Assembly (NCBI GenBank): GCA_964645655.1
Contig: CAZXZS010000001.1
Location: 478,021 to 542,020, forward strand
Length of the DNA stretch: 64,000 bases
Origin: an uncultured Gammaproteobacteria bacterium
Lineage (GTDB): Bacteria > Patescibacteriota > Patescibacteriia > 2-12-FULL-60-25
Reading direction: 5' to 3'
Below, in pieces: positions 13,744-50,681 of the stretch. The notes under the pieces are model-generated. The model saw nothing but the letters and a program-made list of their open reading frames with translations, made no database searches and was not told the origin of the DNA. The translations under genes and the position numbers were made by a program. The stretch's first letter is position 1; each line of letters starts with the position of its first letter.

Positions 13744-14364
13744 ATGGAAACAGTCGATCTGGATGGGTTCGTCGTCGGTGCCAACGGGGTCGCCGGCGGT
13801 CGCTGGGTCTTGCCGTCCGCGCTCGAGGTCGCGCGCCCGACGCGTTGGGGCCGGCGGGCGCGTGTGCGCGTCGTGTCGGTCGCTTGCCTCGCCTCGGTCT
13901 TCCTGATGGTCTCGACGTTCCTGTGGTCCGCATATTCCTTCGAACGCGATTGCCGGCGGCCGTTCCAGGCGTTTCTCTCTGCCGGTGCGGATCCCGGCGA
14001 GGCTCGGGCGCATCTTGATCGGGCCCTGGTGTGCTTCGAGGCCCGTGGCCTGACCGCCGGCCGGCTCCCGTCGCTGCTGAATTCGGAAGGGGAGGACATC
14101 GGGGCGCTGTACCGATCCTTGCGGGTCGTGCGGCTCGCCTTTCCGTCGGATCCCCGCCAGGCCGGGGCGGCGGAAGCGTGGTTGCGTACGGTGCAGGGCG
14201 CATCCTCGTTGCCCGACCCGGACCAGGTGTCGTTGGATCGGATGCTGTGCCTGGGCGACCTGACCCCGCTCTTCCAGGTCTGGGTGGCCATGACGTTCGC
14301 CCTGGGCGCGTACCTCCTGTTCCAGCCGTCCAAGGGCTCCGTGCGTCGTGATCGGAGATCCTGA
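13744..14364 (+). CDS. bitopic membrane protein, tandem paralog family member 3 (divergent)
   Basis: ATG 13744 after AAGGAGAG. LDRALVCFEARGLTAG aligns with the family motif. Own promoter and terminator. Confidence 0.55.
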   Translation: METVDLDGFVVGANGVAGGRWVLPSALEVARPTRWGRRARVRVVSVACLASVFLMVSTFLWSAYSFERDCRRPFQAFLSAGADPGEARAHLDRALVCFEARGLTAGRLPSLLNSEGEDIGALYRSLRVVRLAFPSDPRQAGAAEAWLRTVQGASSLPDPDQVSLDRMLCLGDLTPLFQVWVAMTFALGAYLLFQPSKGSVRRDRRS

Positions 14365-14371
14365 GCCTCGT

Positions 14372-14405
14372 GGCCCGGCCGTTTCCCTCTCGGCCGGGCC
14401 TTTTT
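14372..14405 (+). terminator. intrinsic terminator
   Basis: GGCCCGGCCG / CGGCCGGGCC 10-bp stem plus T5. Confidence 0.65.
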
Positions 14406-14554
14406 CTTTTTCCCTTGATTCCTGCCGCCCGCGCTGGTACAGTCCACCGCGCGTGCGTGCCTGGGGTGGCCATCCGTGGCCCTCCGGAACCGACACGCGG
14501 AGGGGACCCGTGCCCGCGCCCCGCGGCCACGGCCCGTCCAAACCCCACCAGCCT

Positions 14555-14646
14555 GGAGAGGTACCCAAGAGGCTGAAGGGGGGAGATTGCTAATCTCCTA
14601 GGGGTGTAAAAAGCCCGCGAGGGTTCGAATCCCTCCCTCTCCGCCA
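14555..14646 (+). tRNA. tRNA-Ser (anticodon GCU), CCA encoded
   Basis: GGAGAGGTACCCAAGAGGCTGAAGGGGGGAGATTGCTAATCTCC, long variable arm, GAGGGTTCGAATCCCTCCCTCTCCGCCA. Confidence 0.9.
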
Positions 14647-14666
14647 TGATATGTCGTTATCGGAGA

Positions 14667-14684
14667 CGTCTCGCGTGCCTCAAA
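14667..14684. repeat. 18-nt direct repeat, copy 1
   Basis: CGTCTCGCGTGCCTCAAA versus CGTCTCACGTGCCTCGAAA at 15458-15476. Confidence 0.5.
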
Positions 14685-14816
14685 CATGCGAGAAATGTTC
14701 GATGGCATATGACCAGTAAAACCGTCCGAAAGGGCGGTTTTACATTAAACGAGGGATTAATCTAAAATGTAAGTAAAGCAGTTGTACGGAAAGAGCTTTC
14801 CGAATTGCGGTTGTTA

Positions 14817-14884
14817 AAACTTTCGAACCGGCTCCCCAATAGCCAGTCAACAAAACGATCCGCTATTTAGGCGGATAGTTTTGT
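14817..14884. repeat. 39-nt conserved motif plus hairpin, copy 1 (island I)
   Basis: AAACTTTCGAACCGGCTCCCCAATAGCCAGTCAACAAAA, then hairpin ATCCGC-TATTTAG-GCGGAT. 33/39 identical to copy 2. Confidence 0.6.
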
Positions 14885-14898
14885 AATAGATCAAAAAA

Positions 14899-15372
14899 TT
14901 AGCCAGCAACAAATACATTGATGTAATGCTCCCCAAAGGAAATAACTGGGACAAAGGATAAGATCACTAACCCGACCCCGATTGAGAAAAAGACGCTAGA
15001 TACCTTTGGTAAATCGCTAGAGTTAGATCGTCCCTGATACACCCAAAAAGCAAGGGGAATACAGGATGATAATGAAATAGTGAGACCTAAGAGAAAAAGA
15101 TTAAGCTCTACCTGACTATGCGGGTCAAAATCAGTAAATCGGATCGGGAGAGGCTCATCCTTACCATAGAATGCATTAGCGTAGTATCCATCTAGGTCTG
15201 AGCCGGAACCATGAACGCCGGTCGACTCAACTGTAAATGGACCCAGCGCATGACGGTTCACGTAATACTCTTCAAATCTCACATCTGAGGCACCAAAGCT
15301 TTTACCCAAAGAGGCTAAAGCATATAGAACTCCGAAGCACAGAAATATGGTTCTCGCCAAAAATTTCAACAT
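14899..15372 (-). CDS. hypothetical membrane protein
   Basis: ATG 15372. N-terminal signal or TM segment plus C-terminal hydrophobic helices. AT-rich codons. Confidence 0.55.
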   Translation of the reverse strand: MLKFLARTIFLCFGVLYALASLGKSFGASDVRFEEYYVNRHALGPFTVESTGVHGSGSDLDGYYANAFYGKDEPLPIRFTDFDPHSQVELNLFLLGLTISLSSCIPLAFWVYQGRSNSSDLPKVSSVFFSIGVGLVILSFVPVISFGEHYINVFVAG

Positions 15373-15457
15373 AAGATGCTAAAAAGATACTCCTGACATG
15401 TGGAAAGTACAATGATTTACTACCATATTCCGTGTCTCATTTGTCTCATTTTGACCC

Positions 15458-15476
15458 CGTCTCACGTGCCTCGAAA
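15458..15476. repeat. 18-nt direct repeat, copy 2
   Basis: See 14667-14684. The pair brackets gene 14899-15372. Confidence 0.5.
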
Positions 15477-15647
15477 ATACCTGGATTTTGACCCTTGAAA
15501 AAGCCCTTGGGTTACACGTTTTCCTGGTTGCATAACTCGACTGGCCCGCCATCAAGAAATTCGCTCAAATGAGCGTATTTTTTGTTTGATGGGAAAAGGA
15601 AAATCGAAACTTCCGAGCGAACTCACGGGAAGCTATACTGATAGCAC

Positions 15648-15893
15648 ATGTCTAATTTTCAAGAATCAAAGACCCGTACGGCCTTAAAAACCGTCCTCTG
15701 GAGAATCGTTGCTACTTTAATTACATGGGGAAGCCTCTACTATTTCACGGGGCAATTTTTTGAATCGAGTAAGATTACGATCGTAGCAGCGCTTATCGGT
15801 ATGGTGGCATACTACATTTATGAACGCGTATGGAACGTTGTTAAATGGGGAAAATACGACGCGGAAGATTCCCAATCTCGTCAGGGATCCTAA
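15648..15893 (+). CDS. DUF2061 family membrane protein
   Basis: KTVLWRIVATLITWG...IVAALIGMVAYYIYERVWNVVKWG matches the DUF2061 pattern. Confidence 0.75.
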   Translation: MSNFQESKTRTALKTVLWRIVATLITWGSLYYFTGQFFESSKITIVAALIGMVAYYIYERVWNVVKWGKYDAEDSQSRQGS

Positions 15894-15958
15894 AGTTTCG
15901 AACCAGCTCCCCAATGGCCCGCCAGCAAAAAAGCGTCCGTGATTACGGACGCTTTTTT
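15892..15958. repeat. 39-nt conserved motif plus hairpin, copy 2 (island I)
   Basis: AAAGTTTCGAACCAGCTCCCCAATGGCCCGCCAGCAAAA, then hairpin GCGTCCGT-GATT-ACGGACGC and a T-run. Confidence 0.6.
15933..15958 (+). terminator. intrinsic terminator
   Basis: GCGTCCGT / ACGGACGC stem plus T6, after the DUF2061 gene. Confidence 0.65.
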
Positions 15959-16036
15959 GCTGCGAGACCCGCTGGCTTGAGCGCTATCCTTGTGGTCTGC
16001 TCGCAAATGCGGAATGCTGTTCCGTGTATTTCGAAT

Positions 16037-16384
16037 ATGCCATCCCCGCAAGACATTACGTCTCAGATCCTCGCTTTTCGCGACGCTCGCAACTGGAAGC
16101 GGTTTAACAATCCAAAAGACATGGCGCTTTCCTTGGTCCTTGAAGCTACGGAACTCGTGGAGCATTTCCAATGGAAAAACGCTGAAGAAATGGATATCCA
16201 CCTGAAGGGGCGGCGCGCCGAGATCGGCGAGGAATTGGCCGATGTCCTCTACTGGGTCCTCCTCATGGGGCATGATTTTCAAATCGATGTCTTCGACGCC
16301 CTAGAAAAGAAGCTTGAGAAGAATGCCGCGAAATATCCGGTGGACAAGGCGAAGGACGTGCACACGAAATATACGGAGCTATAA
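16037..16384 (+). CDS. MazG-like nucleotide pyrophosphohydrolase
   Basis: ILAFRDARNWKRFNNPKDMALSLVLEATELVEHFQW...EELADVLYWVLLM...LEKKLEKNAAKYP is the MazG/dCTPase-like all-alpha NTP-PPase pattern. ATG 16037 preferred over ORF-track start 15845. Confidence 0.8.
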   Translation: MPSPQDITSQILAFRDARNWKRFNNPKDMALSLVLEATELVEHFQWKNAEEMDIHLKGRRAEIGEELADVLYWVLLMGHDFQIDVFDALEKKLEKNAAKYPVDKAKDVHTKYTEL

Positions 16385-16386
16385 GT

Positions 16387-18261
16387 ATGCAGATTTACGA
16401 ATCCTCCAAGGAAGCCTTCATTGACGTCGTCCGCGGCGGTAAGATCGACCAGGTCCTAATCGATTTTTATTATAAGGCAACCGGCAAAATGGTGGGCAAG
16501 GCCGAACAGGAATCATGGAAGAAATCCATGCGATATATGCGGGACGTGCTACGCGATCGGGAGATCCCTGCGGATGCGGGCGTGTCGATCGAATACCATA
16601 TCCCGCACACGTCGATGCGGGTTGACTTCATCTTGACCGGGCAAGACGTGGCCGGGATCGACCACGCCCTATTGATCGAGTTGAAGCAATGGTCTGAGGC
16701 TCAGCTTTCTCATAAGGACGGGATAGTCAGTACGAAATTTTTTGGAGAGGTGAGCCACCCATCGTATCAAGCCTGGTCCTATGCTGCCCTCTTGCAGGGA
16801 TTTAGCGAGACCGTGGAACAGCAGAGCGTTCAGTTGAAGCCATGCGCGTACCTGCATAATTACATCAGCGATGACGTCATCAAGAATCCGGTTTACGGGG
16901 AATACCTGGCCAAGGCGCCCGTCTTTCTCGAGGGGGATGAGGAAAAGGAGAAGCTGCAGGCCTTCATTAAGCGATTCGTTCATCGTGGCGACAAAACGCG
17001 TCTCATGTACCGGATCGATGGCGGAAGATTCAGGCCCTCTAAAGGACTCGCTGAAAGCCTCGCTCGCATGCTGGAAGGCAACAAGGAATTCATCCTGATC
17101 GACGAGCAGAAAGTGGTTTACGAAACGGCCCTAAGTCTGGCGAAGGAGTCTTCTGCAGAGAACAAGAACGTCCTGATTATCCGCGGGGGTCCCGGAACCG
17201 GGAAGTCGGTTGTCGCGATCAATTTGCTGGTTGCTTTGACGAAGCTTCGTCTTTGGACCCAGTACGTAACCAAGAATCTTGCGCCACGAGCTGTCTTTGA
17301 ATGCATGTTGACGGGAAAAATGACCAAGACCGAGATCGCTAGCCTCTTCGCCGGCTCCGGTTCGTTTACCGAGGCCCCAAAGAACGCTTTCGATGCGCTC
17401 GTCGTGGATGAGGCGCATCGCCTGAACGAGAAATCCGGCATCTTCAGGCATCTTGGCGAGAACCAGATCAAGGAGATCGTCGAAGCATCAAAATTCTCTG
17501 TTTTCTTTATCGATGAAGACCAGCGGGTCACCTGGCATGATATCGGAGAGGTGGGGGAGATCAAGCGGTGGGCGACGGTTTCTGGGGCGAAGGTACAGGT
17601 CATGGATCTTTCCTCCCAATTTCGCTGTAACGGGTCCGATGGGTATCTCGCATGGCTCGACGACACGCTCCAAATTCGGGAAACGGCCAATCCGGTCCTT
17701 GATGTGAAGGAATACGATTTTCAGGTCGTCGATTCACCCACCCAATTGCAAGAGCTTGTATTTAAGAAGAACAGAGAAAAGAACCGAGCGCGTATGGTCG
17801 CCGGCTATTGCTGGGAATGGGTGAGCAAGAAGAACAAGGCGCTCCTGGATATCCGCTTTCCCGAGCATGGATTTGCAATGCGCTGGAATCTGGAGAGCGA
17901 CGGCGGTCTCTGGATCTTGGGCCGTGATTCCGTAAACGAGGTTGGGTGCATCCATACGTGCCAAGGGCTTGAAATGGATTATGTTGGCGTGATCGTTGGA
18001 CCCGATCTGATCGTCCGAAACGGGAATATCCTGACCGTCCCAGAGAAGCGCGCCAAGTCAGATGCTTCGATCAAGGGCTACAAGACCTTGCTTGCAAAAG
18101 ATCCGGGTCAGGCCGCCAAGAAGGCCGATGCGATTATCAAGAACACCTATCGAACCCTCATGACGCGCGGTATGAAGGGTTGTTATGTGTATTTTACGGA
18201 TAAGGAGACAGAGGAGTATTTCAAGAATCGCGCGCGCCCGCGGGTACTTGGAGGGTGGTAG
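16387..18261 (+). CDS. DUF2075-type ATPase/helicase with N-terminal PD-(D/E)xK-like nuclease motif (Nhi/Schlafen-helicase-like)
   Basis: N-terminal RVDFILTG...LLIELKQW. Walker A GGPGTGKS, Walker B VVDEAHRL, C-terminal TYRTLMTRGMKGCYVY. The start lies 2 nt after the MazG stop. Confidence 0.85.
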   Translation: MQIYESSKEAFIDVVRGGKIDQVLIDFYYKATGKMVGKAEQESWKKSMRYMRDVLRDREIPADAGVSIEYHIPHTSMRVDFILTGQDVAGIDHALLIELKQWSEAQLSHKDGIVSTKFFGEVSHPSYQAWSYAALLQGFSETVEQQSVQLKPCAYLHNYISDDVIKNPVYGEYLAKAPVFLEGDEEKEKLQAFIKRFVHRGDKTRLMYRIDGGRFRPSKGLAESLARMLEGNKEFILIDEQKVVYETALSLAKESSAENKNVLIIRGGPGTGKSVVAINLLVALTKLRLWTQYVTKNLAPRAVFECMLTGKMTKTEIASLFAGSGSFTEAPKNAFDALVVDEAHRLNEKSGIFRHLGENQIKEIVEASKFSVFFIDEDQRVTWHDIGEVGEIKRWATVSGAKVQVMDLSSQFRCNGSDGYLAWLDDTLQIRETANPVLDVKEYDFQVVDSPTQLQELVFKKNREKNRARMVAGYCWEWVSKKNKALLDIRFPEHGFAMRWNLESDGGLWILGRDSVNEVGCIHTCQGLEMDYVGVIVGPDLIVRNGNILTVPEKRAKSDASIKGYKTLLAKDPGQAAKKADAIIKNTYRTLMTRGMKGCYVYFTDKETEEYFKNRARPRVLGGW

Positions 18262-41965: not shown

Positions 41966-41994
41966 GAATACCCACCTTTTTGCGGTGGGTATTC
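41966..41994 (-). terminator. hairpin immediately outside attL; probably the original tRNA-Lys terminator displaced by the island
   Basis: GAATACCCACC / GGTGGGTATTC 11-bp stem with a 7-nt loop. Confidence 0.5.
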
Positions 41995-41996
41995 TT

Positions 41997-42021
41997 CGTG
42001 GTGGGACCGGTGGGGATCGAA
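41997..42021. repeat. attL: 25-bp copy of the tRNA-Lys 3' end
   Basis: Exact match to 50604-50628. Flanking bases differ on both sides. Confidence 0.85.
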
Positions 42022-42226: not shown

Positions 42227-43342
42227 CTACACGATATTTAATAACCTTTTCATTCGTGTTAGAAGTTCTGCAAGATTTGACTGCAAGATTTTCTGAGTAT
42301 CGGGAAAGTAATCACCTTGTACGTTTTGTTCATTGTTGTGTGCAACGAAGTTATGTCTAGTTTTAATTAGATATTGGATGATAGCCTCATTCTTTATTGC
42401 TTTATAAACAGGGTCATTTTTAAACCATTTCTCAAGAGAAATTACATCTGTTCTGCCATCAAATAAGCCCGCAACTCGGACCGTGAGATAGTCCTGTATG
42501 ATCCGGTGTAAGTTTCCGACGTGGCTCAAATCTGTCGATTCAGTTGAGCCCAGGCTTTTTTGAAGCGCTGCATTAAGTCTTGCTAACTCTATGAGCGCTC
42601 TTTCGCAGTTTTCGACCGTATACTCAAGGAATCCTTTTTCTTCTCGTAAAGAGCGTTGATTTTTCATAGATTGGCTTTCGACAAAATAATTTAAGCCATG
42701 GGTCGCTATCTCAAAACCTTCTTTTAGGATACGTAGAGCTCCAACCCATAACGCAAATAATACAGCATATGCAAGCAAGTAACTTATTTTAGTTGGTCTT
42801 GTAAGAACGCAAATTTCGCCCTGAGAGCTTATTGATAGTGTTCCAAGTGGTGGAATCGGGGGAGGATCATGTGTGAATTCCAAGTTTGTACATCTATCGT
42901 ACCCACTTTTAATAGCATCTGGGATTTGACTTACAGGAAGATTCTTTACGATTTGATGTTTCGACTCAAAATCGAAACGTTCTTTTGCACCATTTACGTC
43001 ACAGGTAAGCGTTGCAGGGTACTTAGTGACTTTGTCTAGTGCAACGATGGTTCCAGAGGCATTAAAGACGGTCTCGTTTGAGAATGATACCCGGTTAATT
43101 AGAAAAGCATCATAATATATGATTGATGAGAGCCTATTATCTAAACGGCCAAGATTTGAACTGGCTTGTTGAAGGTAGTTTTCAAACTCTGGGGTAATAA
43201 GCTTTCCTTGATAATCTTTATTGGCGCTGCTGAGTAGGGTTGAAAAGCATCTAAAAGCACCCAAGAACAGCAACGGCATTGTTGGAATGATAAAAATAAT
43301 GATATACCAAACAGATTTTAACCAAGCAGATTTCTTCGACAT
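42227..43342 (-). CDS. two-TM protein with extracytoplasmic domain and C-terminal HEPN-like domain (Rx4-6H)
   Basis: ATG 43342. Hydrophobic helices at about aa 8-30 and 185-207. C-terminal KTRHNFVAHNN (R329...H335; nt 42338-42358), as in Abi-type HEPN RNases. Confidence 0.6.
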   Translation of the reverse strand: MSKKSAWLKSVWYIIIFIIPTMPLLFLGAFRCFSTLLSSANKDYQGKLITPEFENYLQQASSNLGRLDNRLSSIIYYDAFLINRVSFSNETVFNASGTIVALDKVTKYPATLTCDVNGAKERFDFESKHQIVKNLPVSQIPDAIKSGYDRCTNLEFTHDPPPIPPLGTLSISSQGEICVLTRPTKISYLLAYAVLFALWVGALRILKEGFEIATHGLNYFVESQSMKNQRSLREEKGFLEYTVENCERALIELARLNAALQKSLGSTESTDLSHVGNLHRIIQDYLTVRVAGLFDGRTDVISLEKWFKNDPVYKAIKNEAIIQYLIKTRHNFVAHNNEQNVQGDYFPDTQKILQSNLAELLTRMKRLLNIV

Positions 43343-43370
43343 ATCTATAAACGAAAAGGTCTAAGGACTG

Positions 43371-44804
43371 CTAAAATAGAGCCTGTTTTTCATTGGGATA
43401 GTTGGGTGCGATTTTAGATGATCCATGTAGGCGAGTTTTTTTTGTCATAAAACGATAGTCAACTGAGTCTAGTAAAAAATCTGTACTATAAAAAGAAGAA
43501 ATCATCTGAATAATTTCAGTGCCGGATATAGAGGTTGAATATTGTCCTTCATTTGTTACCCTGCTAACCCGAAATACAGCATCTTCAAAATCTTTGCGAA
43601 ACATATCCCTTTCGCTTTCTGTAGTGTGCGATGGGTTCATTGGGCACCTTGTAACGACCCATCCCTTATCTATTAGTTTTTGTTCCAGATAGTTTAAATC
43701 AAAGTATACTTTTGCTCTTACATGACCAAACATTATTCGCATACATTGTTTGGCATCTAATGGTAATAATGAATATGGTATTACATTTCTGGCGAATTGG
43801 TTATTTTCGTTAACGAATGAATAGTAACTATCATAGACTATTATGTTATCCTCGATTTTCTCCATCCACTTAGGGGCGGAATCTTTAAATCTTTTATAGC
43901 AAAGATCGATACTCTCTCTGGTGTGGCGGTTAGGCTTTTCCAGCGCATCGTATGATTGAACTTTTAAAAAGTACCCGGGTTCAAGTGGAGCGTATGCAAG
44001 GAAATCTTTATCAGCTCTTTTAATAATTTCTCTTAGCTGACGAAAATAAGTTTTTATTGGTATATCTATATCAACTATATCTGCTTCTAAGCTTTTTATG
44101 ACGGTTCCGTCCTTGAAAATTGGTATTTCAATTCTTCCTTTTATAATTGAATTTTGAGTAAGAAAATGCCTTCTTTCTTGTATAGTTATTTTTGGGCTAC
44201 CGCGCCCCGTAGCCTTATTTATTATATCTCTTGCGTCAAACAGTTTTGTTTTGGACTTGCTAGTCTTTGCTTCATAAATGATGATCTTTCCATCAGGCAG
44301 AATGTGGGTAAAATCTCCGATGCGGCAAAAACGGGTTAGATCGTTTACAATTATAACCCCATTAGATTTTAACCCCATTATTATGTCTAGCTCTTTATCT
44401 ATATATCCGGGCGAGTCATTCTCTGATAGGAGGCGCATTAAAGCTCTTTGGCAGCCTAGATTCCTCCAAGCTATTCCATCTGCGATTGTTTGAAGTACCC
44501 TGGAAAGCTGCTTGTGAGCCTCCAATCTTTTTATAAGGCTCTGGCGATTTAAAATGTTCGTTTCCTCGAATAACAGCTTTTTACCTTCTTGAATAGTAAG
44601 CTGAAATTTTGAAAGTTGATGCGCCATGACCTTTTGCAAAAACAGAAGATAGACACTATTTCTTTTCAAAATCGGTAGCCGACTAAACGTCAATGTCCTT
44701 GACATTGAGGGTATAAAATTTTGGTAATACTTAAAAAATAGAATCTTACTGATCCGCGCCTCGATATCTTTTTTTGGATTTTCGCCTTCTGGGTATTTGG
44801 GCAT
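43371..44804 (-). CDS. hypothetical protein with PD-(D/E)xK-like nuclease core motif
   Basis: ATG 44804. CRIGD(164)FTHILPDGKIIIYE(178)AK(180)TSKSK (nt 44265-44315). 28-nt gap to the downstream gene. Confidence 0.55.
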   Translation of the reverse strand: MPKYPEGENPKKDIEARISKILFFKYYQNFIPSMSRTLTFSRLPILKRNSVYLLFLQKVMAHQLSKFQLTIQEGKKLLFEETNILNRQSLIKRLEAHKQLSRVLQTIADGIAWRNLGCQRALMRLLSENDSPGYIDKELDIIMGLKSNGVIIVNDLTRFCRIGDFTHILPDGKIIIYEAKTSKSKTKLFDARDIINKATGRGSPKITIQERRHFLTQNSIIKGRIEIPIFKDGTVIKSLEADIVDIDIPIKTYFRQLREIIKRADKDFLAYAPLEPGYFLKVQSYDALEKPNRHTRESIDLCYKRFKDSAPKWMEKIEDNIIVYDSYYSFVNENNQFARNVIPYSLLPLDAKQCMRIMFGHVRAKVYFDLNYLEQKLIDKGWVVTRCPMNPSHTTESERDMFRKDFEDAVFRVSRVTNEGQYSTSISGTEIIQMISSFYSTDFLLDSVDYRFMTKKTRLHGSSKIAPNYPNEKQALF

Positions 44805-44896
44805 TTTGGTAAGTATTTAAGGTGGGCTTTTTTAAACCGATAATCTTCCGCAAATATGGGTATTTAATTTAGCTTATTGAATCAGTTTAGTGAGGC

Positions 44897-46573
44897 CTAG
44901 CATACTTCTTTAGGGTTTCCATGCGCATCAAACCAATATAGTTTGTTATCCTTTTCATCGAAATGCACATGCTCGGAAAGAAACCTAGTCGTCATTAAGA
45001 ATCCATCGGCCATCTTCTCATTGGCGGCGAATTTAGGAAGGAGCTTTTCTTTAACATAGGCAAGAAAAGCATCTCTGTTAGGATCATTAGTGGGTTGAGC
45101 ATAAATTATCAGAGCGACCTTAGTTAAAGCTGGGTAAAAGCCTCTCTCTACATTTTCTTTAACTTCAAACATCAGGTAGTCAAAAAACAAGTTATTACTA
45201 TCTCCTACAGGAGGATGTTTCCATATAAAGCGTGTTGCCGCTGTAATAGCGTAAAAACGTATAGCGTCTTTATCTTGCTTATTTTTTATATACGAAAGAC
45301 CACTCAAAAAATGAACGGTGGATAATGCAAATTGCGCTAGTACGTTTTTTGCATAATAAGTTCCATTTTCTGCCTTATATTCGACTTTTAGCTGACTATC
45401 TGGGATAGGAGGTGCATTCTCCTCACTTCGGAATATGTCAGGCCAGGTAGAGGAGAAGAAAAAGCTAAGTTTATGAAGCAGAGATTGAGCCTTACTAGCA
45501 ACAAAAGGATCTATTTCAGGTGATGAGGCGGTACATATATTTGCGATGTATCTAGAAAAATCACCTAAATCACTTGCGAAAATCACCCAGTATCTATCAA
45601 GAATGGGAGAATTTGCCTCCATTCTTACCGTTGCCCTCATGACTATTTCAATAATCTTTAACTGAACGGTTAGGTACTCTTCGCTATAGCGATTTTCTTC
45701 ATTTGGATGAAAGAGAACAGAGCTATTAATAAAGCCATGATTTACATACCACCCATCTTCGAACAAAATTTTGTAGATATTAAAACCGAGCGCTAATCCA
45801 TTCTGAGATATCTGATGATAGAGATGGGAATCATGACTTTGAACCATTTTCTCTAGTAAGCCCCTAATAAATCCCTCCCCCATGACAAAACGAGAGTTTA
45901 TTTTAGGTAATGTGGATAATATTCTACACAGGACATCAATCCTATTAGAACTTAAAAAACTTATAAGAATTGGATCGACAAGAAGAACGTTAAAAACATT
46001 CCCTATATCTTTCTTATACTCGTTATCTTGATTGTGGGGGTTGTTGTAATGCTTGAGCAATAACGGCAGATTCTCGTCTAGTACTTGAACTACATTGCCC
46101 ACGGCGGTGCCCGTGTCCTTGGCTATCGCACTATATAAAACCTCGAAAAACTTTTTTGAATTATCTTTGCTGAATAAGGTTTTATAAGTTGCTCCATATA
46201 AGAAAACAATAATACTGGTACTCACCAGAATGAAGCTTAAAAATTGAAAGAAGCCTACATTTCTTGGTAGCGGGATACTAATAGAGATCTGATCGATCAA
46301 GACACTATAAATAATTGAGATTGCCGCAAGGACAATAAGGGCAATGCTCCACCTATTTAGATTTGAGCGTATCTTTATTCTTAGGTCCCACAAACTGTTT
46401 TTTAGCTGGTATACAGCAATGAAAATTGCTACAGCTGTTAAAAACTCTCCGAGAGAGAAAATATCATTTGGTATGTTACTGATAAGACAGGACTGATTTT
46501 TGATAAAACCAAACCAACAATCAACTAATGGGTTCATTGTTAACTGATTTGTTAAAGTGGATATGGTAGTCAT
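44897..46573 (-). CDS. hypothetical protein with about three N-terminal TM helices and a large helical soluble region
   Basis: ATG 46573; the ORF-track start 46588 is TTG. First gene of the three-gene minus-strand set. No motif recognised. Confidence 0.55.
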   Translation of the reverse strand: MTTISTLTNQLTMNPLVDCWFGFIKNQSCLISNIPNDIFSLGEFLTAVAIFIAVYQLKNSLWDLRIKIRSNLNRWSIALIVLAAISIIYSVLIDQISISIPLPRNVGFFQFLSFILVSTSIIVFLYGATYKTLFSKDNSKKFFEVLYSAIAKDTGTAVGNVVQVLDENLPLLLKHYNNPHNQDNEYKKDIGNVFNVLLVDPILISFLSSNRIDVLCRILSTLPKINSRFVMGEGFIRGLLEKMVQSHDSHLYHQISQNGLALGFNIYKILFEDGWYVNHGFINSSVLFHPNEENRYSEEYLTVQLKIIEIVMRATVRMEANSPILDRYWVIFASDLGDFSRYIANICTASSPEIDPFVASKAQSLLHKLSFFFSSTWPDIFRSEENAPPIPDSQLKVEYKAENGTYYAKNVLAQFALSTVHFLSGLSYIKNKQDKDAIRFYAITAATRFIWKHPPVGDSNNLFFDYLMFEVKENVERGFYPALTKVALIIYAQPTNDPNRDAFLAYVKEKLLPKFAANEKMADGFLMTTRFLSEHVHFDEKDNKLYWFDAHGNPKEVC

Positions 46574-46716
46574 GGAATTCAGAATCAAGGCAATATCCCC
46601 ATGTCTGCTCTGCGACAGAGGGGCTTTGTTTGATTTTAAGAGTATTGTCCAGGGGCGGTTCTGTCCATTTATCTATTTGAGAAACATGATATTTGAGTTT
46701 AGACTTAATATGATTT

Positions 46717-47052
46717 ATGTCAGCTCCCAAAAATAACAAAAACGCTCTTGGCAACCGCGGAGGTGGTCGTAAGAGCGCTTTTGAAGAGATGAAGGAAGCA
46801 AAGTGGCTTAAAACCGTGTGGAATAGAGATTTTGATGTTGGCTCCCTTCAGAAAAAAGTAGAGAGTGGAACGTATAGCGTGCGCGACATCTTCCTTCTGA
46901 ACGCTTTAAGTGGCCAGCCAGCCGCTTTAAAGGTCATGGCGGATAAGATTCTGCCTGGTAGGGATGAAATGAAAGACAAGCGAGAACAAGAGGTCTGGCA
47001 ACCCCCCGTTATTGTCGATCCTAGCGGGGAGCCTTTCGCTTTGGGTAAATGA
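46717..47052 (+). CDS. hypothetical small protein (basic NNKNALGNRGGGRK N-terminus, phage/plasmid-like)
   Basis: ATG 46717, divergent from the three-gene set. The N-terminal motif recalls small phage DNA-binding or terminase-small proteins, from memory only. Confidence 0.45.
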   Translation: MSAPKNNKNALGNRGGGRKSAFEEMKEAKWLKTVWNRDFDVGSLQKKVESGTYSVRDIFLLNALSGQPAALKVMADKILPGRDEMKDKREQEVWQPPVIVDPSGEPFALGK

Positions 47053-47063
47053 GGATATTAAAA

Positions 47064-47459
47064 TTATCTGCCTAATCTTTCGCGTTCATCAAGCTTGCGT
47101 ATAACCCGATCCGCTATCTCCTCGGTTAAGCTTTCACCGAAACCCGTACTAAACTTCACTAAAAGGAAACAGGCGGAACCTATGCCTAAAACATACTTTA
47201 AAATCGGCCATGAGCGAGCAATAAGCTCTGTAAAGATACCAACCGCACCTTTTCCGCTATCCACTAGCTCCACTGCTAAATAAATTAGAAAAATAGCTGC
47301 CACTATATACAATATCGTCTTTGAAAGATACTGGGAGAGTCTTAGAAGGCTATCTCTTAATGGGGATGATTTAAGCTTTTTTAAGAGAGCGGGGGCGTGG
47401 TGTATTGCGCCACCAATGAGCAAAAGGGCTCCTAGGACTGATAGCATTGATTCGTTCAT
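47064..47459 (-). CDS. hypothetical small membrane protein
   Basis: ATG 47459 (MNESMLSVLGALLLIGG...). Three hydrophobic helices. A longer start at 47597 is possible. Confidence 0.45.
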   Translation of the reverse strand: MNESMLSVLGALLLIGGAIHHAPALLKKLKSSPLRDSLLRLSQYLSKTILYIVAAIFLIYLAVELVDSGKGAVGIFTELIARSWPILKYVLGIGSACFLLVKFSTGFGESLTEEIADRVIRKLDERERLGR

Positions 47460-47686
47460 AGTTTTAAGAAAAGTCGATAAACAAAAAGGACACCCCTGAG
47501 GTGTCCAGACCCAAACAACAAGACCCGAGAGCCCTGCCGCTTGTTTTATCAGGAGTGCCCTTTTTATCGCATCAGGGCTCCTGAAAAACAGCCGCATTTA
47601 TCGCGGTTGGGTATAGTTGTTTGAATCTGGACGATGACAATATCTCTCTTATGGTTTAAAAAGTCAAAGAAAGATTAATAGAGTAT

Positions 47687-48505
47687 ATGTCTAGATATCA
47701 GGGCGCTGACCTAAGAATGTGGCGTGCTTTTTTGCACGATCTTGTGATGTGGGATGATTATCAGTACGAGATAGTAAAAATCAGGAGAAAACATGTAATA
47801 CCTCCTGTGGGATATAGCTTGGCAGGCGGTAAGCAAGTGCCGCCTACAGCTTGGAAGGAAAATCGTTTAAAACAAATTAGAAATAGGGGTCTTGAATTTG
47901 AGTTGAATGCAGATGAGTTTTGTACGATGGATCTATATCAAGATGTCGCTGCTCTCAATGCTCGTTATGGGTTGTTTTTCCCCTTAGAATATAATCCAAC
48001 TCATTTCTTTGTTTTTTATGACCAGCTTCCAACGGAAGAGGAGATGACGTTTCAAAACCCAAAGGATGATGGTTTTTCCTTAAACGATGTTTTTTTAGAG
48101 AAGCCTTCATTTCTCGTGAATGCGTTGTTATGTGCAAGCGATGATCAGAAGAAGTTCATTGCCGAACAACAAAAAAATAAAGAATTAGTTTTCCCTATCT
48201 CGCTTCGAGTCTCTCTTTTTAGCTCTCAGAGTGATATTTGGGATTACCTAAATAGAAACTGGAAAAAGCTTATAGAGCCAGAGATCGTTAAGGCTCGCAA
48301 CAATCTTGGGCTAAATAGGCGTCCTAGAAGAAGGAGTTTGCGTGTTGCTATGGTTGAGCGTTTTATATTGAGCAATAAGGATAAAGACGCTCAGGAAATT
48401 AAAAAACAGTTACGAATATTTTTGGGATGTGGAAAAACTACTTCAGAGATTCAGTCTATTATTGCTAAGAAAAGGCTAAATTATAACAAAAAACTTAAAC
48501 CATAA
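47687..48505 (+). CDS. hypothetical protein
   Basis: ATG 47687. AT-rich codons. Basic C-terminus. No motif recognised. Confidence 0.5.
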   Translation: MSRYQGADLRMWRAFLHDLVMWDDYQYEIVKIRRKHVIPPVGYSLAGGKQVPPTAWKENRLKQIRNRGLEFELNADEFCTMDLYQDVAALNARYGLFFPLEYNPTHFFVFYDQLPTEEEMTFQNPKDDGFSLNDVFLEKPSFLVNALLCASDDQKKFIAEQQKNKELVFPISLRVSLFSSQSDIWDYLNRNWKKLIEPEIVKARNNLGLNRRPRRRSLRVAMVERFILSNKDKDAQEIKKQLRIFLGCGKTTSEIQSIIAKKRLNYNKKLKP

Positions 48506-48884
48506 TCGGGACTACTTTAAGAAGTTACGAAGTGATCAGCAAAGCATAGTCTAGTGTGTGTAGGAGCGAAAAATTGCTCTTATGCACGTTCTTTCGTTTA
48601 TAGACGTCTGACTTGTACGTAAACAAGAAGGCGCAGGAAAGTCTTGAAGCCTGGGCGTAAGCCAAAACAGTGATTGTTCCTTGCTCCGCAAAGCAACAAA
48701 TGCCTCAGCGGCTCATGTTCGGATACCAAGCCCGAAGCGTACCAAGCATCCAACTTAACTTGTGCCACCGTGTGGCTCTAGTCATGCATGTACGTGTGCT
48801 CGGGTCTAACCCTCTGAACAGGAGAGGGGCTCACATTCATTCACTCTTAACGAACTCCCTCCATCCAAGGGAGAGGGGATTTTT

Positions 48885-49157
48885 ATGTCTCAATGTGGAT
48901 TTATGAAGGTCACAACGCTCCCGCATGTGCCCTGTCCCTGGTGCAATAAGTCGGGTGTATATGTGTACGCGCGACATCGTTCCGTTCGATACGAATGCCT
49001 TTTTAGGTGCGGCTATTACGCCAACATTCCTAAGCAACTTCTTACCTATCAACAGAAACGGGCCTTTTACCCTAGGGATCGTAAGAAAAAGGGTAGGGCA
49101 AAACTTGTCGGCACAGTTCTTATCATTGTTTTACTTCTCGCCTCTATATATGCTTAA
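48885..49157 (+). CDS. hypothetical zinc-ribbon-like protein with C-terminal TM helix
   Basis: CPWCNKSG...YECLFRCGYY, then LVGTVLIIVLLLASIYA. Confidence 0.45.
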   Translation: MSQCGFMKVTTLPHVPCPWCNKSGVYVYARHRSVRYECLFRCGYYANIPKQLLTYQQKRAFYPRDRKKKGRAKLVGTVLIIVLLLASIYA

Positions 49158-49206
49158 CGTACCCTCTCAGTCGGTTGATGCACCTCGACAATCAAAGAAG
49201 CAGGTT

Positions 49207-49437
49207 ATGACAGATACGGAGCAGATAGTTCTGGATTCTGAATTAGTATTCTTGAATATTAGAGAAGTTGCGGGGGTACTTAGGATCGCGCCCGTTAGCG
49301 TTTATCGCTTGATCGCAAAGCGTGCCATTCCTGTATACCGAGCTTGCCGTAAAATTCTCTTTAAGAAGCGTGATATTCTTGATTACCTTGAACGCAATCG
49401 TAAGGAATCTTCAACCTATGGCGGTCCGGAAGGTTAA
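49207..49437 (+). CDS. xis: excisionase / helix-turn-helix DNA-binding protein
   Basis: LNIREVAGVLRIAPVSVYRLIAKRAIPVYRACRKILFKKRDILDYLE is the excisionase-family HTH pattern. Overlaps the int start. ATG 49150 is an alternative start. Confidence 0.7.
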   Translation: MTDTEQIVLDSELVFLNIREVAGVLRIAPVSVYRLIAKRAIPVYRACRKILFKKRDILDYLERNRKESSTYGGPEG

Positions 49438-50524
49438 GGGGAGTTGGTGGGTAGATTTCCAGATTCGTCTTCACCGACACCGCTACCGTAGTCCAGAGAA
49501 TACTCGCGAAGGCGCGCTTGCCTTTGAAGCTAATCTTAGGCAGAAAATTGCACGTGGAGAAGATATAGGACTTCGCCCTAACGTCGATAATAACCCAGCA
49601 TTCGCTGTATTTGCGATGGAATGGGTTGATACTCAGGTGAAGACAGAGAATAAGCCCTCTGAGGTGCGCGCGAAGATGAGCGTACTCAACAATCATCTTT
49701 TGCCCTTCTTCGGTAAGCTCACGTTGAGACAGATAGATTCACAAATAGTCGAGCAATACAAAGCTCAAAAGATTCGTTCAGGCTTGGCAGCAAAGACAGT
49801 GAATAACCACCTAGTCATCCTTCAGCGCTGTTTAAACGTGGCATTAGAGTGGGGGAAGCTGCAGCGTGTGCCAAAGATAGGGAAGCTGAAATGTATCTCA
49901 CAGCGTCTCGATTTCCTTAGTCCACTCGAAAGTCATCAGTTGGTCCAGGGATGCGATGAGTCTATGTGGCGAGATATGTTGCTCATGGCACTTCGTACAG
50001 GAATGCGGCTAGGGGAGTTGTGTGGCCTTCAGTGGCGCGATGTGGATTTAGGTCGAAAGATGTTAACGGTTCAGCATTCGCTTGTACGGGGAGTGCTGGG
50101 CTCTCCAAAAAGCCATAAGATTAGGCACATCCCTCTTACGGACGATCTTTGCCGAACTCTGTACGAACGGAGACATGAGCACGGGTTCGTTTTTCGCCGC
50201 CCTGATGGTCGTCCTATCGTGGATTGGGTAGCTGAATGCGGTATCCGTCGAGCTTGTAGGAAGGCGGGGATTCGTGAAATAGGCTGGCATACCCTTCGTC
50301 ACACCTTTGCTTCGCAGTTGGTTAGTGAAGGGGTGCCATTAAACGCGGTTCAAGAGTTGCTTGGGCATTCTACGGTCGTTATGACCATGAAATATGCCCA
50401 TCTCGCTCCGTCCGCTCTTCGTTCTGCGGTGGATGTACTCGAAAAGGCGGAAAATCGCGAAATTGAGAAAAAATGTCAGCCCGGCGTCAACCTTGAACAG
50501 ATGTTAAGCCGAGCAATGCATTAA
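49418..50524 (+). CDS. int: tyrosine-type site-specific integrase
   Basis: LRTGMRLGELCGLQWRDV, HTLRHTFASQLV, LLGHSTVVMTMKYAHL (R..HxxR..Y catalytic set). Adjacent to tRNA-Lys. Confidence 0.9.
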   Translation: MAVRKVKGSWWVDFQIRLHRHRYRSPENTREGALAFEANLRQKIARGEDIGLRPNVDNNPAFAVFAMEWVDTQVKTENKPSEVRAKMSVLNNHLLPFFGKLTLRQIDSQIVEQYKAQKIRSGLAAKTVNNHLVILQRCLNVALEWGKLQRVPKIGKLKCISQRLDFLSPLESHQLVQGCDESMWRDMLLMALRTGMRLGELCGLQWRDVDLGRKMLTVQHSLVRGVLGSPKSHKIRHIPLTDDLCRTLYERRHEHGFVFRRPDGRPIVDWVAECGIRRACRKAGIREIGWHTLRHTFASQLVSEGVPLNAVQELLGHSTVVMTMKYAHLAPSALRSAVDVLEKAENREIEKKCQPGVNLEQMLSRAMH

Positions 50525-50605
50525 GCCGACCACTCATGTGTTCGATTCACCCAGTGTTTACAACCAAAAACAAAACACCCAGCATCTTGATGCGGGTGTC
50601 TTGCG

Positions 50606-50681
<76 letters not shown>

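Follow-up and report, generated by a model that had tools for sequence, protein, structure and literature searches.

The 64,000-nucleotide stretch of DNA analysed here (the window; positions 478,021 to 542,020 of the forward strand of contig CAZXZS010000001.1, GenBank assembly GCA_964645655.1, from an uncultured Gammaproteobacteria bacterium placed in the Patescibacteriota by its GTDB lineage) carries an 8552-bp integrative island, about half of which is taken up by three genes that we term A, B and C. All three lie on the minus strand: gene A at 44897–46573 (558 aa from its ATG, with an alternative start at 46537; 546 or 558 aa in public gene calls), gene B at 43371–44804 (477 aa) and gene C at 42227–43342 (371 aa), with intergenic gaps of 92 nt between A and B and 28 nt between B and C. 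Calling of open reading frames (ORFs) reproduced the coordinates given in an initial annotation of this DNA, and the 4347 bases of A, B and C amount to 51% of the island, in agreement with its estimate of about half. ORFs of 371–558 aa in DNA of 37% guanine-plus-cytosine (GC) content are far beyond chance expectation. The initial annotation proposed that the trio is a single, undescribed defence or abortive-infection system; we instead favour, with moderate confidence, the reading that the A-B-C block is accessory cargo of the island, a mosaic of three modules with independent histories that amounts to a mini defence island rather than a single co-evolved system.

The three genes differ sharply from their surroundings in composition, with GC contents of 0.369 (A), 0.365 (B) and 0.389 (C) and third-codon-position values (GC3) of 0.335–0.352, against GC of 0.59–0.69 and GC3 of 0.71–0.86 in flanking host genes. 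The low-GC block ranges from 0.36 to 0.41 between flanks of 0.61–0.73, the island as a whole has a GC content of 0.41 versus about 0.67 in the host, and the matching composition of A, B and C suggests that they probably derive from low-GC donors. The island is bounded by 55-nt attachment-site (att) direct repeats of 80% identity that share an exact 25-nt core at their 3′ side: attL at 41967–42021 (core 41997–42021), where GC falls from 0.61 to 0.39, and attR at 50574–50628, which overlaps the 3′ end of a tRNA-Lys(ttt) gene, the integration target (50606–50681, minus strand; ARAGORN, with an Rfam tRNA score of 72.8 bits). Beside the tRNA gene lies a tyrosine integrase gene (49322–50524, plus strand; PF00589, E = 1.8e-31, with SAM-like N-terminal domains), the true start of which is probably downstream of 49322, as in the public call of 368 aa. 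A tyrosine integrase beside a tRNA gene, a repeat duplicating the tRNA 3′ end and a deviant composition together identify the element as a tRNA-targeting integrative island, and the earlier description of A, B and C as foreign, low-GC, integrase-borne cargo is borne out. The outer, non-identical parts of the att repeats (41967–41996 and 50574–50603) hold a similar hairpin-like sequence in both copies, the left one reading AATACCCACC...GGTGGGTATT, and the sequence just past the tRNA 3′ end was apparently duplicated together with the tRNA end.

Relatives of the three proteins do not occur together elsewhere. We searched the six-frame ORFs of every fetched locus with phmmer, using each island protein as a query, and with profiles of the A and B families; the survey covered 20 distinct B loci, the window included, and 7 A loci obtained from a sub-alignment-based locus scan. 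No relative of A or C was found near the 19 other B loci, and none of B or C near the 7 A loci. Apart from the window, B was found in B loci only, A in A loci only and C in a single protein, P0019, so that no other locus combines two of the families. Likewise, no partner gene is common to the 7 A loci. As the A, B and C families were not found together at any other locus surveyed, the three genes probably represent separate modules instead of a single system; the one-system proposal, for which the initial annotation had itself named co-occurrence as the test, did not hold up.

Gene B belongs to a conserved family without annotation. In a collection of 5.8 billion proteins we identified 17 homologues at 29–56% identity, nearly all of them full length. 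Residues D164, E178 and K180, within the motif CRIGD164-x13-E178-A-K180, are invariant across the 17-sequence alignment, as are D109, G110–R114 (the tail of a conserved IADGIAWR motif), N154–T157, T166, Q209, Q217, E275 and G277. The D..ExK triad is also kept in more distant members, both in Dehalococcoidia and Anaerolineae metagenome-assembled genomes (MAGs) of the Chloroflexota (22–29% identity) and on the Streptomyces violaceoruber plasmid pSV2 (24% identity). From the family alignment AlphaFold2 produced a confident model (predicted local distance difference test, pLDDT, 84.4; predicted template modelling score, pTM, 0.87) that places a helix at 135–144, strands at 150–153, 165–168 and 174–182, helices at 191–222 and a strand at 224–231, with D164 immediately preceding the strand 165–168 and E178 and K180 lying on the strand 174–182. 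Compared by secondary-structure order only, this arrangement corresponds to the canonical alpha-beta-beta-beta-alpha-beta order of PD-(D/E)xK nucleases.

Database searches with B returned no match in Pfam, PADLOC, NCBIfam or PHROGs, and sequence and profile searches of the PDB were empty. Foldseek searches with the model gave no structural neighbour (best E 1.1 in the PDB and 0.32 in BFVD, a viral structure library), although whole-chain comparison may overlook small divergent cores. The restriction-endonuclease-like core proposed for B in the initial annotation thus stands as regards its motif, which is invariant, and its strand order, which fits, but gained no match in the PDB or the viral structure library; we regard the nuclease assignment, which is motif-based, as plausible. 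A classical type II restriction enzyme was considered and set aside: the island ORFs scanned contain no methyltransferase domain, several B loci besides the window are likewise devoid of a methyltransferase gene (L009, L010, L014 and L016 contain no methylase), and the methylase found at L001 and L008 is already paired with a restriction endonuclease of its own. One family member, P0015 (637 aa; L012:3841–5754), carries roughly 150 extra residues at its N-terminus that give faint nucleotidyltransferase-like matches (DUF7277 and Aminoglyc_resit; E 0.006–0.07), and its gene is divergent from a ParB-methylase gene.

The neighbourhoods of B vary from locus to locus. Close relatives are found mostly in low-GC MAGs of the Patescibacteria type, and a large serine recombinase is present in 8 distinct loci, which indicates that B is a recurrent cargo of small integrative elements; at L016 and L009 it is almost the sole cargo beside serine recombinases. 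Among the neighbours are an EcoRI-type methylase with a DUF262-HNH enzyme (PADLOC REase_II, E 2e-128) at L001 and L008, the latter also encoding HicAB; a PD-T7-1/PD-T7-5-like protein (L003, E 5e-18); DUF4238-Pers and Fic proteins (L004); a small helix-turn-helix (HTH) protein gene overlapping the start of B, and a Mod/Res-like pair (L006); a LexA-S24-methylase fusion and a second restriction–modification (R-M) system (L007); SocA_Panacea (L010); a ParB-methylase (L012); and a PDC-M34B/HEPN_Swt1-like protein directly downstream of B (L014). The Dehalococcoidia members have housekeeping-type neighbours, such as a beta-lactamase-family protein and an aminotransferase.

In the usual arrangement B follows, after a very small gap, another gene on its own strand, and the identity of that upstream gene varies. 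Its two closest relatives (52–55% identity; L011 and L034) share an upstream gene, U (L011:17–781; L034:1–375), that is 66% identical over 124 aa, ends 9–12 nt before B, bears no relation to A and is missing from the window; no Pfam annotation is recorded for U, a PDB search with it gave no match, and PDB searches with the 388-aa L034 protein and with the TIGR02391 protein of pSV2 found nothing. Three further proteins were rejected by eye as analogous partners of B: a 168-aa protein of L020 with an RNYYEH sequence, which by its HFHGIVH motif looks like a REP-associated (HUH-type) transposase and not a HEPN protein, the downstream protein of L008, which looks GIY-YIG-like, and that of L022, which looks DUF559-like.

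Gene A is likewise a member of a family of its own. A word-index search recovered A alone and had made it appear an orphan, a view overturned by an exhaustive HMMER scan of 1.84 billion representatives, which returned 100 representatives at E ≤ 1e-3, 63 of them at E ≤ 1e-10. Most of these relatives are 530–600 aa long and align end to end at 20–30% identity, with G42, R211, S249, F271 and P513 invariant in the family. Hydropathy analysis confirmed the three N-terminal hydrophobic helices described earlier (36–57, 72–100 and 105–130) and added a weaker segment at 190–208. Similarly, the large helical region noted in the initial annotation is present in an AlphaFold2 model (pLDDT 86.1, pTM 0.81) in which three long N-terminal helices, corresponding to the hydrophobic segments, are followed by an all-alpha solenoid. 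Foldseek recovered generic HEAT/ARM-type similarity only (best E 0.014; template modelling score, TM, ≤ 0.22), the family profile had no sequence match in the PDB, and no credible Pfam or PADLOC match was found in 40 family members scanned or in 10 more that align over the N-terminal part only; isolated PADLOC matches to unrelated models in 2 of the 40 (E about 0.007–0.009) were treated as noise. That A has no recognised motif is still the case, then, but with about 100 relatives it is not without a family.

The A loci include a gene that has one for a HATPase_c_3 (GHKL-type ATPase) protein about 3 kb upstream of it on the opposite strand (L025), a gene between two large serine recombinases (L026), one directly after a type I HsdS gene (L027, E 3e-74) and one directly before a PtuA-like AAA ATPase (L029, E 1e-25). 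A is a stand-alone, widely distributed and unannotated family that favours mobile-element and defence contexts. At L027 (1095–2835) the gene consists of two overlapping ORFs of 133 and 458 aa, reflecting a frameshift or pseudogene, or an assembly error. With relatives of both A and B in defence-island or mobile-element neighbourhoods, the anti-phage-cargo context suggested by the initial annotation agrees with our survey, and so does its statement that the trio fits no named defence system: neither A, B and C nor three other ORFs of the island that have no known family matched any PADLOC-DB v2.0 model at E ≤ 1.

Gene C encodes a protein with two hydrophobic helices, at 7–34 and 185–207 by hydropathy, that bracket a loop of about 150 aa, as had been described. 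Given its lysine-rich N-terminus and the basic residues that follow the second helix, C would, by the positive-inside rule, have its HEPN-like C-terminal domain in the cytoplasm and its 35–184 loop outside the membrane. Within the C-terminal domain, residues 313–369 match Pfam HEPN_AbiU2 with a score (17.3 bits, E 0.0035) that falls short of the gathering score, 26.8, and the same part of the profile is matched, also below 26.8, by P0019 (16.6 bits, E 0.0056); both weak matches span the conserved RHNFVAH motif, and since the two proteins are homologous their matches are not independent of one another. The Rx4-6H motif pointed out in the initial annotation is present as R329-HNFVA-H335 (Rx5H) and is identical in P0019, the only relative of C, although so short a motif turns up by chance in many proteins. 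Residues 267–356 of C share 64% identity with the C-terminal part of P0019, no full-length relative of C was found, and C has no match in PADLOC, NCBIfam, PHROGs, the PDB, plasmids or phages. We consider the HEPN assignment of C probable. Its two-membrane-helix architecture is unique.

P0019 (286 aa; L013:930–1790) is itself a fusion, in which the N-terminal half of a RhuM-family domain (E 1.5e-43) is joined to the putative HEPN domain shared with C, in place of the usual C-terminal half of RhuM. Treating RhuM as a HEPN family, and P0019 as a domain swap, was considered and dropped: the account of RhuM in Anantharaman et al. 2013 (PMC3710099) proposes it as a toxin domain, distinct from HEPN. 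The same work describes AbiU2 as a HEPN family with a conserved motif that is found in R-M operons.

How far the three genes work together can be judged from their packing in the island and from the company that each keeps elsewhere. Several observations weigh against a mosaic of independent modules: A, B and C share one strand, are tightly packed and nearly identical in GC and GC3, and recur together in three metagenome samples, all of which is compatible with an operon that acts jointly; the survey is a small sample of 20 distinct B loci and 7 A loci; and C has essentially no relatives through which co-occurrence could show. The assignments themselves are also exposed at three points, in that the nuclease assignment of B, which has no structural neighbour, depends on its motif and strand order, the HEPN assignment of C draws on sub-threshold matches and a short motif, and a defence role is read from gene neighbourhood. 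A single three-component defence or abortive-infection system, with A as membrane sensor or scaffold, B as DNA nuclease and C as membrane HEPN RNase, would account for the shared strand, the 92- and 28-nt gaps and the matching composition. Two of its three proteins are membrane proteins, a terminator scan found no terminator-like site in either gap, and the block is conserved in the three samples. Those samples, however, hold the same island, unchanged and always in the same host context, and so represent one observation seen three times. At the other loci surveyed, relatives of A, B and C are never near each other's genes, A and B each have many different neighbours, and the nearest relatives of B have a different conserved upstream gene, U; we therefore hold a three-component system to be very improbable. 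A promoter scan was uninformative, promoter-like sites being no commoner than in shuffled sequence, and a search for hidden RNA components yielded only the tRNA in Rfam and no meaningful tandem repeats.

Narrower couplings that leave A aside deserve somewhat more weight. B directly adjoins a HEPN-type protein in 3 of the 20 loci, which are very divergent, and in each the protein belongs to a different HEPN family: the AbiU2-like C in the window (same strand, 28-nt gap); a HEPN_Swt1/PDC-M34B-like protein with the motif RNALAH at L014:1969–4532 (same strand, 14-nt gap); and, on pSV2 (L035, NC_004934.1:5692–7766; convergent and overlapping), a ‘TIGR02391 family protein’ with the motif RNVAAH, which, to judge by that motif, may be of the Ymh HEPN family. 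A genuine two-gene system of B and C, with A unrelated to it, in which C would guard B or provide a second line as PrrC does for EcoprrI, and in which the HEPN partner would be interchangeable, is encouraged by this recurrence, by the close spacing of B and C, and by the precedent of AbiU2 and Ymh, two HEPN families reported from within R-M operons (PMC3710099). Yet most B loci have no recognised HEPN neighbour, the convergent genes of pSV2 cannot form an operon, and, HEPN genes being common in defence islands, chance adjacency is plausible and 3 of 20 is suggestive rather than significant. We regard such a pair as unlikely, though worth keeping in mind. We are more sceptical of a broader version, in which B would be the constant half of a modular two-part defence whose partners (the variable upstream gene, a HEPN RNase from whichever family, or both) are swapped between lineages; here the partners would be A and C, giving an abortive infection of an undescribed kind in which DNA and RNA nucleases are coupled at the membrane. 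Equally doubtful to us is that the genes have no part in defence and serve the mobile element, with B acting in transfer, recombination or addiction and A and C in exclusion or host interaction, or are inert passengers. B does recur beside serine recombinases on small elements, at times almost without other cargo, none of the genes matches a PADLOC model, and the distant Dehalococcoidia members sit amid housekeeping-type genes. Neither the A nor the B family was found in viral contigs (IMG/VR pattern scans) or in 50,697 phage genomes, and as the same searches gave no relative of C, a phage origin was also set aside. The neighbours of B, however, are dominated by R-M, toxin–antitoxin and candidate defence genes and not by transfer or replication genes, B lies at the end of the cargo far from the integrase in the window, and an A-family gene right after hsdS occupies a typical defence-gene position.

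Under the favoured reading of three independent modules, we infer distinct roles for the three proteins. B would represent a new family of metal-dependent DNA endonucleases of the PD-(D/E)xK type, cutting invading DNA through D164, E178 and K180, and would act as a solitary restriction-like (type IV-like) or abortive-infection nuclease; the lack of a cognate methylase points to a modification-dependent (type IV-like) specificity or to a regulated abortive activity. C would be an AbiU2-type HEPN RNase held at the membrane, with its catalytic domain in the cytoplasm, and its external loop of about 150 aa could detect events at the envelope and gate the RNase activity. A, a membrane-anchored alpha-solenoid devoid of a catalytic signature, would probably be a sensor or scaffold, or a membrane perturber, acting independently. 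The presence of B beside three HEPN families in three divergent loci suggests that B and C may be loosely coupled, in the manner of R-M systems with HEPN ‘second-line’ RNases.

Among known systems, B most readily invites comparison with solitary PD-(D/E)xK restriction-type nucleases (type IV or Mrr-like enzymes and the restriction-endonuclease-fold proteins of defence islands), which it resembles in the invariant D-x13-ExK on a beta-hairpin, in its core order, in the lack of a dedicated methyltransferase, and in its location on mobile elements beside R-M and defence genes. It differs from them in having no detectable sequence or structure similarity to known members in Pfam, NCBIfam, PADLOC, the PDB or BFVD, in a long helical N-terminal region with the invariant IADGIAWR, and in a large alpha/beta region at its C-terminal end. 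The C-terminal domain of C, which carries Rx5H, matches only HEPN_AbiU2, the family of Lactococcus AbiU2 (PMC3710099), and just as that family is described there in R-M operons, C follows the restriction-like nuclease gene B; its score, however, is below the gathering score, and two membrane helices with an external loop of about 150 aa do not appear in the table entry for AbiU2 in PMC3710099. Gene pairs of the EcoprrI–PrrC type and the R-M operons with Ymh or AbiU2 share with three B loci the placement of a DNA-nuclease gene beside a HEPN gene, but B is not a recognised R-M component, no methyltransferase domain was detected in any island ORF scanned and no ABC-ATPase domain on the island, and the adjacency holds in only 3 of 20 loci.

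Csx28, an accessory protein of type VI-B CRISPR-Cas13b systems (bioRxiv 10.1101/2021.11.02.466367), is a membrane-anchored antiviral defence protein with a divergent HEPN-type domain. C, for which a similar role would be assumed, resembles Csx28 in architecture only; the two have no sequence relationship, and no cas-related Pfam or PADLOC match was found among the island ORFs. Csx28 is also a pore-forming protein that Cas13b activates. Finally, A and B recall the singletons listed by PADLOC as ‘phage defence candidates’, being likewise unannotated and having recurrent defence or mobile-element placement as their sole functional clue, but with no credible match in PADLOC v2.0 the two families are not among the candidates catalogued there.

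The rest of the island, between A and the tRNA gene, holds the integration module and three small ORFs. Divergent from A is a 111-aa ORF (46717–47052, plus strand) that has no family match and is called as a gene in public assemblies; it is followed by a 177-aa ORF with 3–4 hydrophobic helices by hydropathy and no significant family match (47064–47597, minus strand) and by a 272-aa ORF, found by ORF calling, with no family match (47687–48505, plus strand). Immediately upstream of the integrase gene, and overlapping its annotated start, lies a gene for an excisionase-like, HTH_17-type DNA-binding protein (48925–49437, plus strand; phrog_25262, E 4e-8; phrog_66 ‘excisionase and transcriptional regulator’, E 1e-4; PF12728 HTH_17 in the public call). 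Within 46000–50524 of the window, the integrase/excisionase module has a GC content of 0.45–0.49, versus 0.37–0.39 for the A-B-C cargo, a difference which suggests that module and cargo were acquired in separate events. Elsewhere in the window, a second low-GC stretch (14000–18000; 0.52 versus about 0.67) lies beside a tRNA-Ser(gct) gene (14555–14646) and may be another integrated element.

An integrase-borne island with nuclease- and HEPN-type cargo is familiar; what is new here are the A and B families and the architecture of two membrane helices with a HEPN-like domain, which are uncatalogued in Pfam, NCBIfam, PADLOC v2 and the PDB. The locus also carries a lesson in method, namely that tight spacing within an island is not evidence of a system, since in this case independently mobile genes appear to have been packed together. 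Its cargo merits a phage-challenge experiment, even though the proposal of a new system made up of three genes was not borne out. A represents a widespread and wholly unannotated membrane-solenoid family that recurs in defence contexts, and the architecture proposed for C, with its extracytoplasmic loop, would, if correct, offer a simple model for the gating of an RNase by signals from the membrane. Should B prove to be an active nuclease, a structurally unplaced family would join the restriction and abortive-infection repertoire, and this family is centred in the Patescibacteria and Chloroflexota, lineages whose immune systems are poorly known. The presence of cargo of 37% GC in a host of about 67% GC documents gene flow between very distant lineages.

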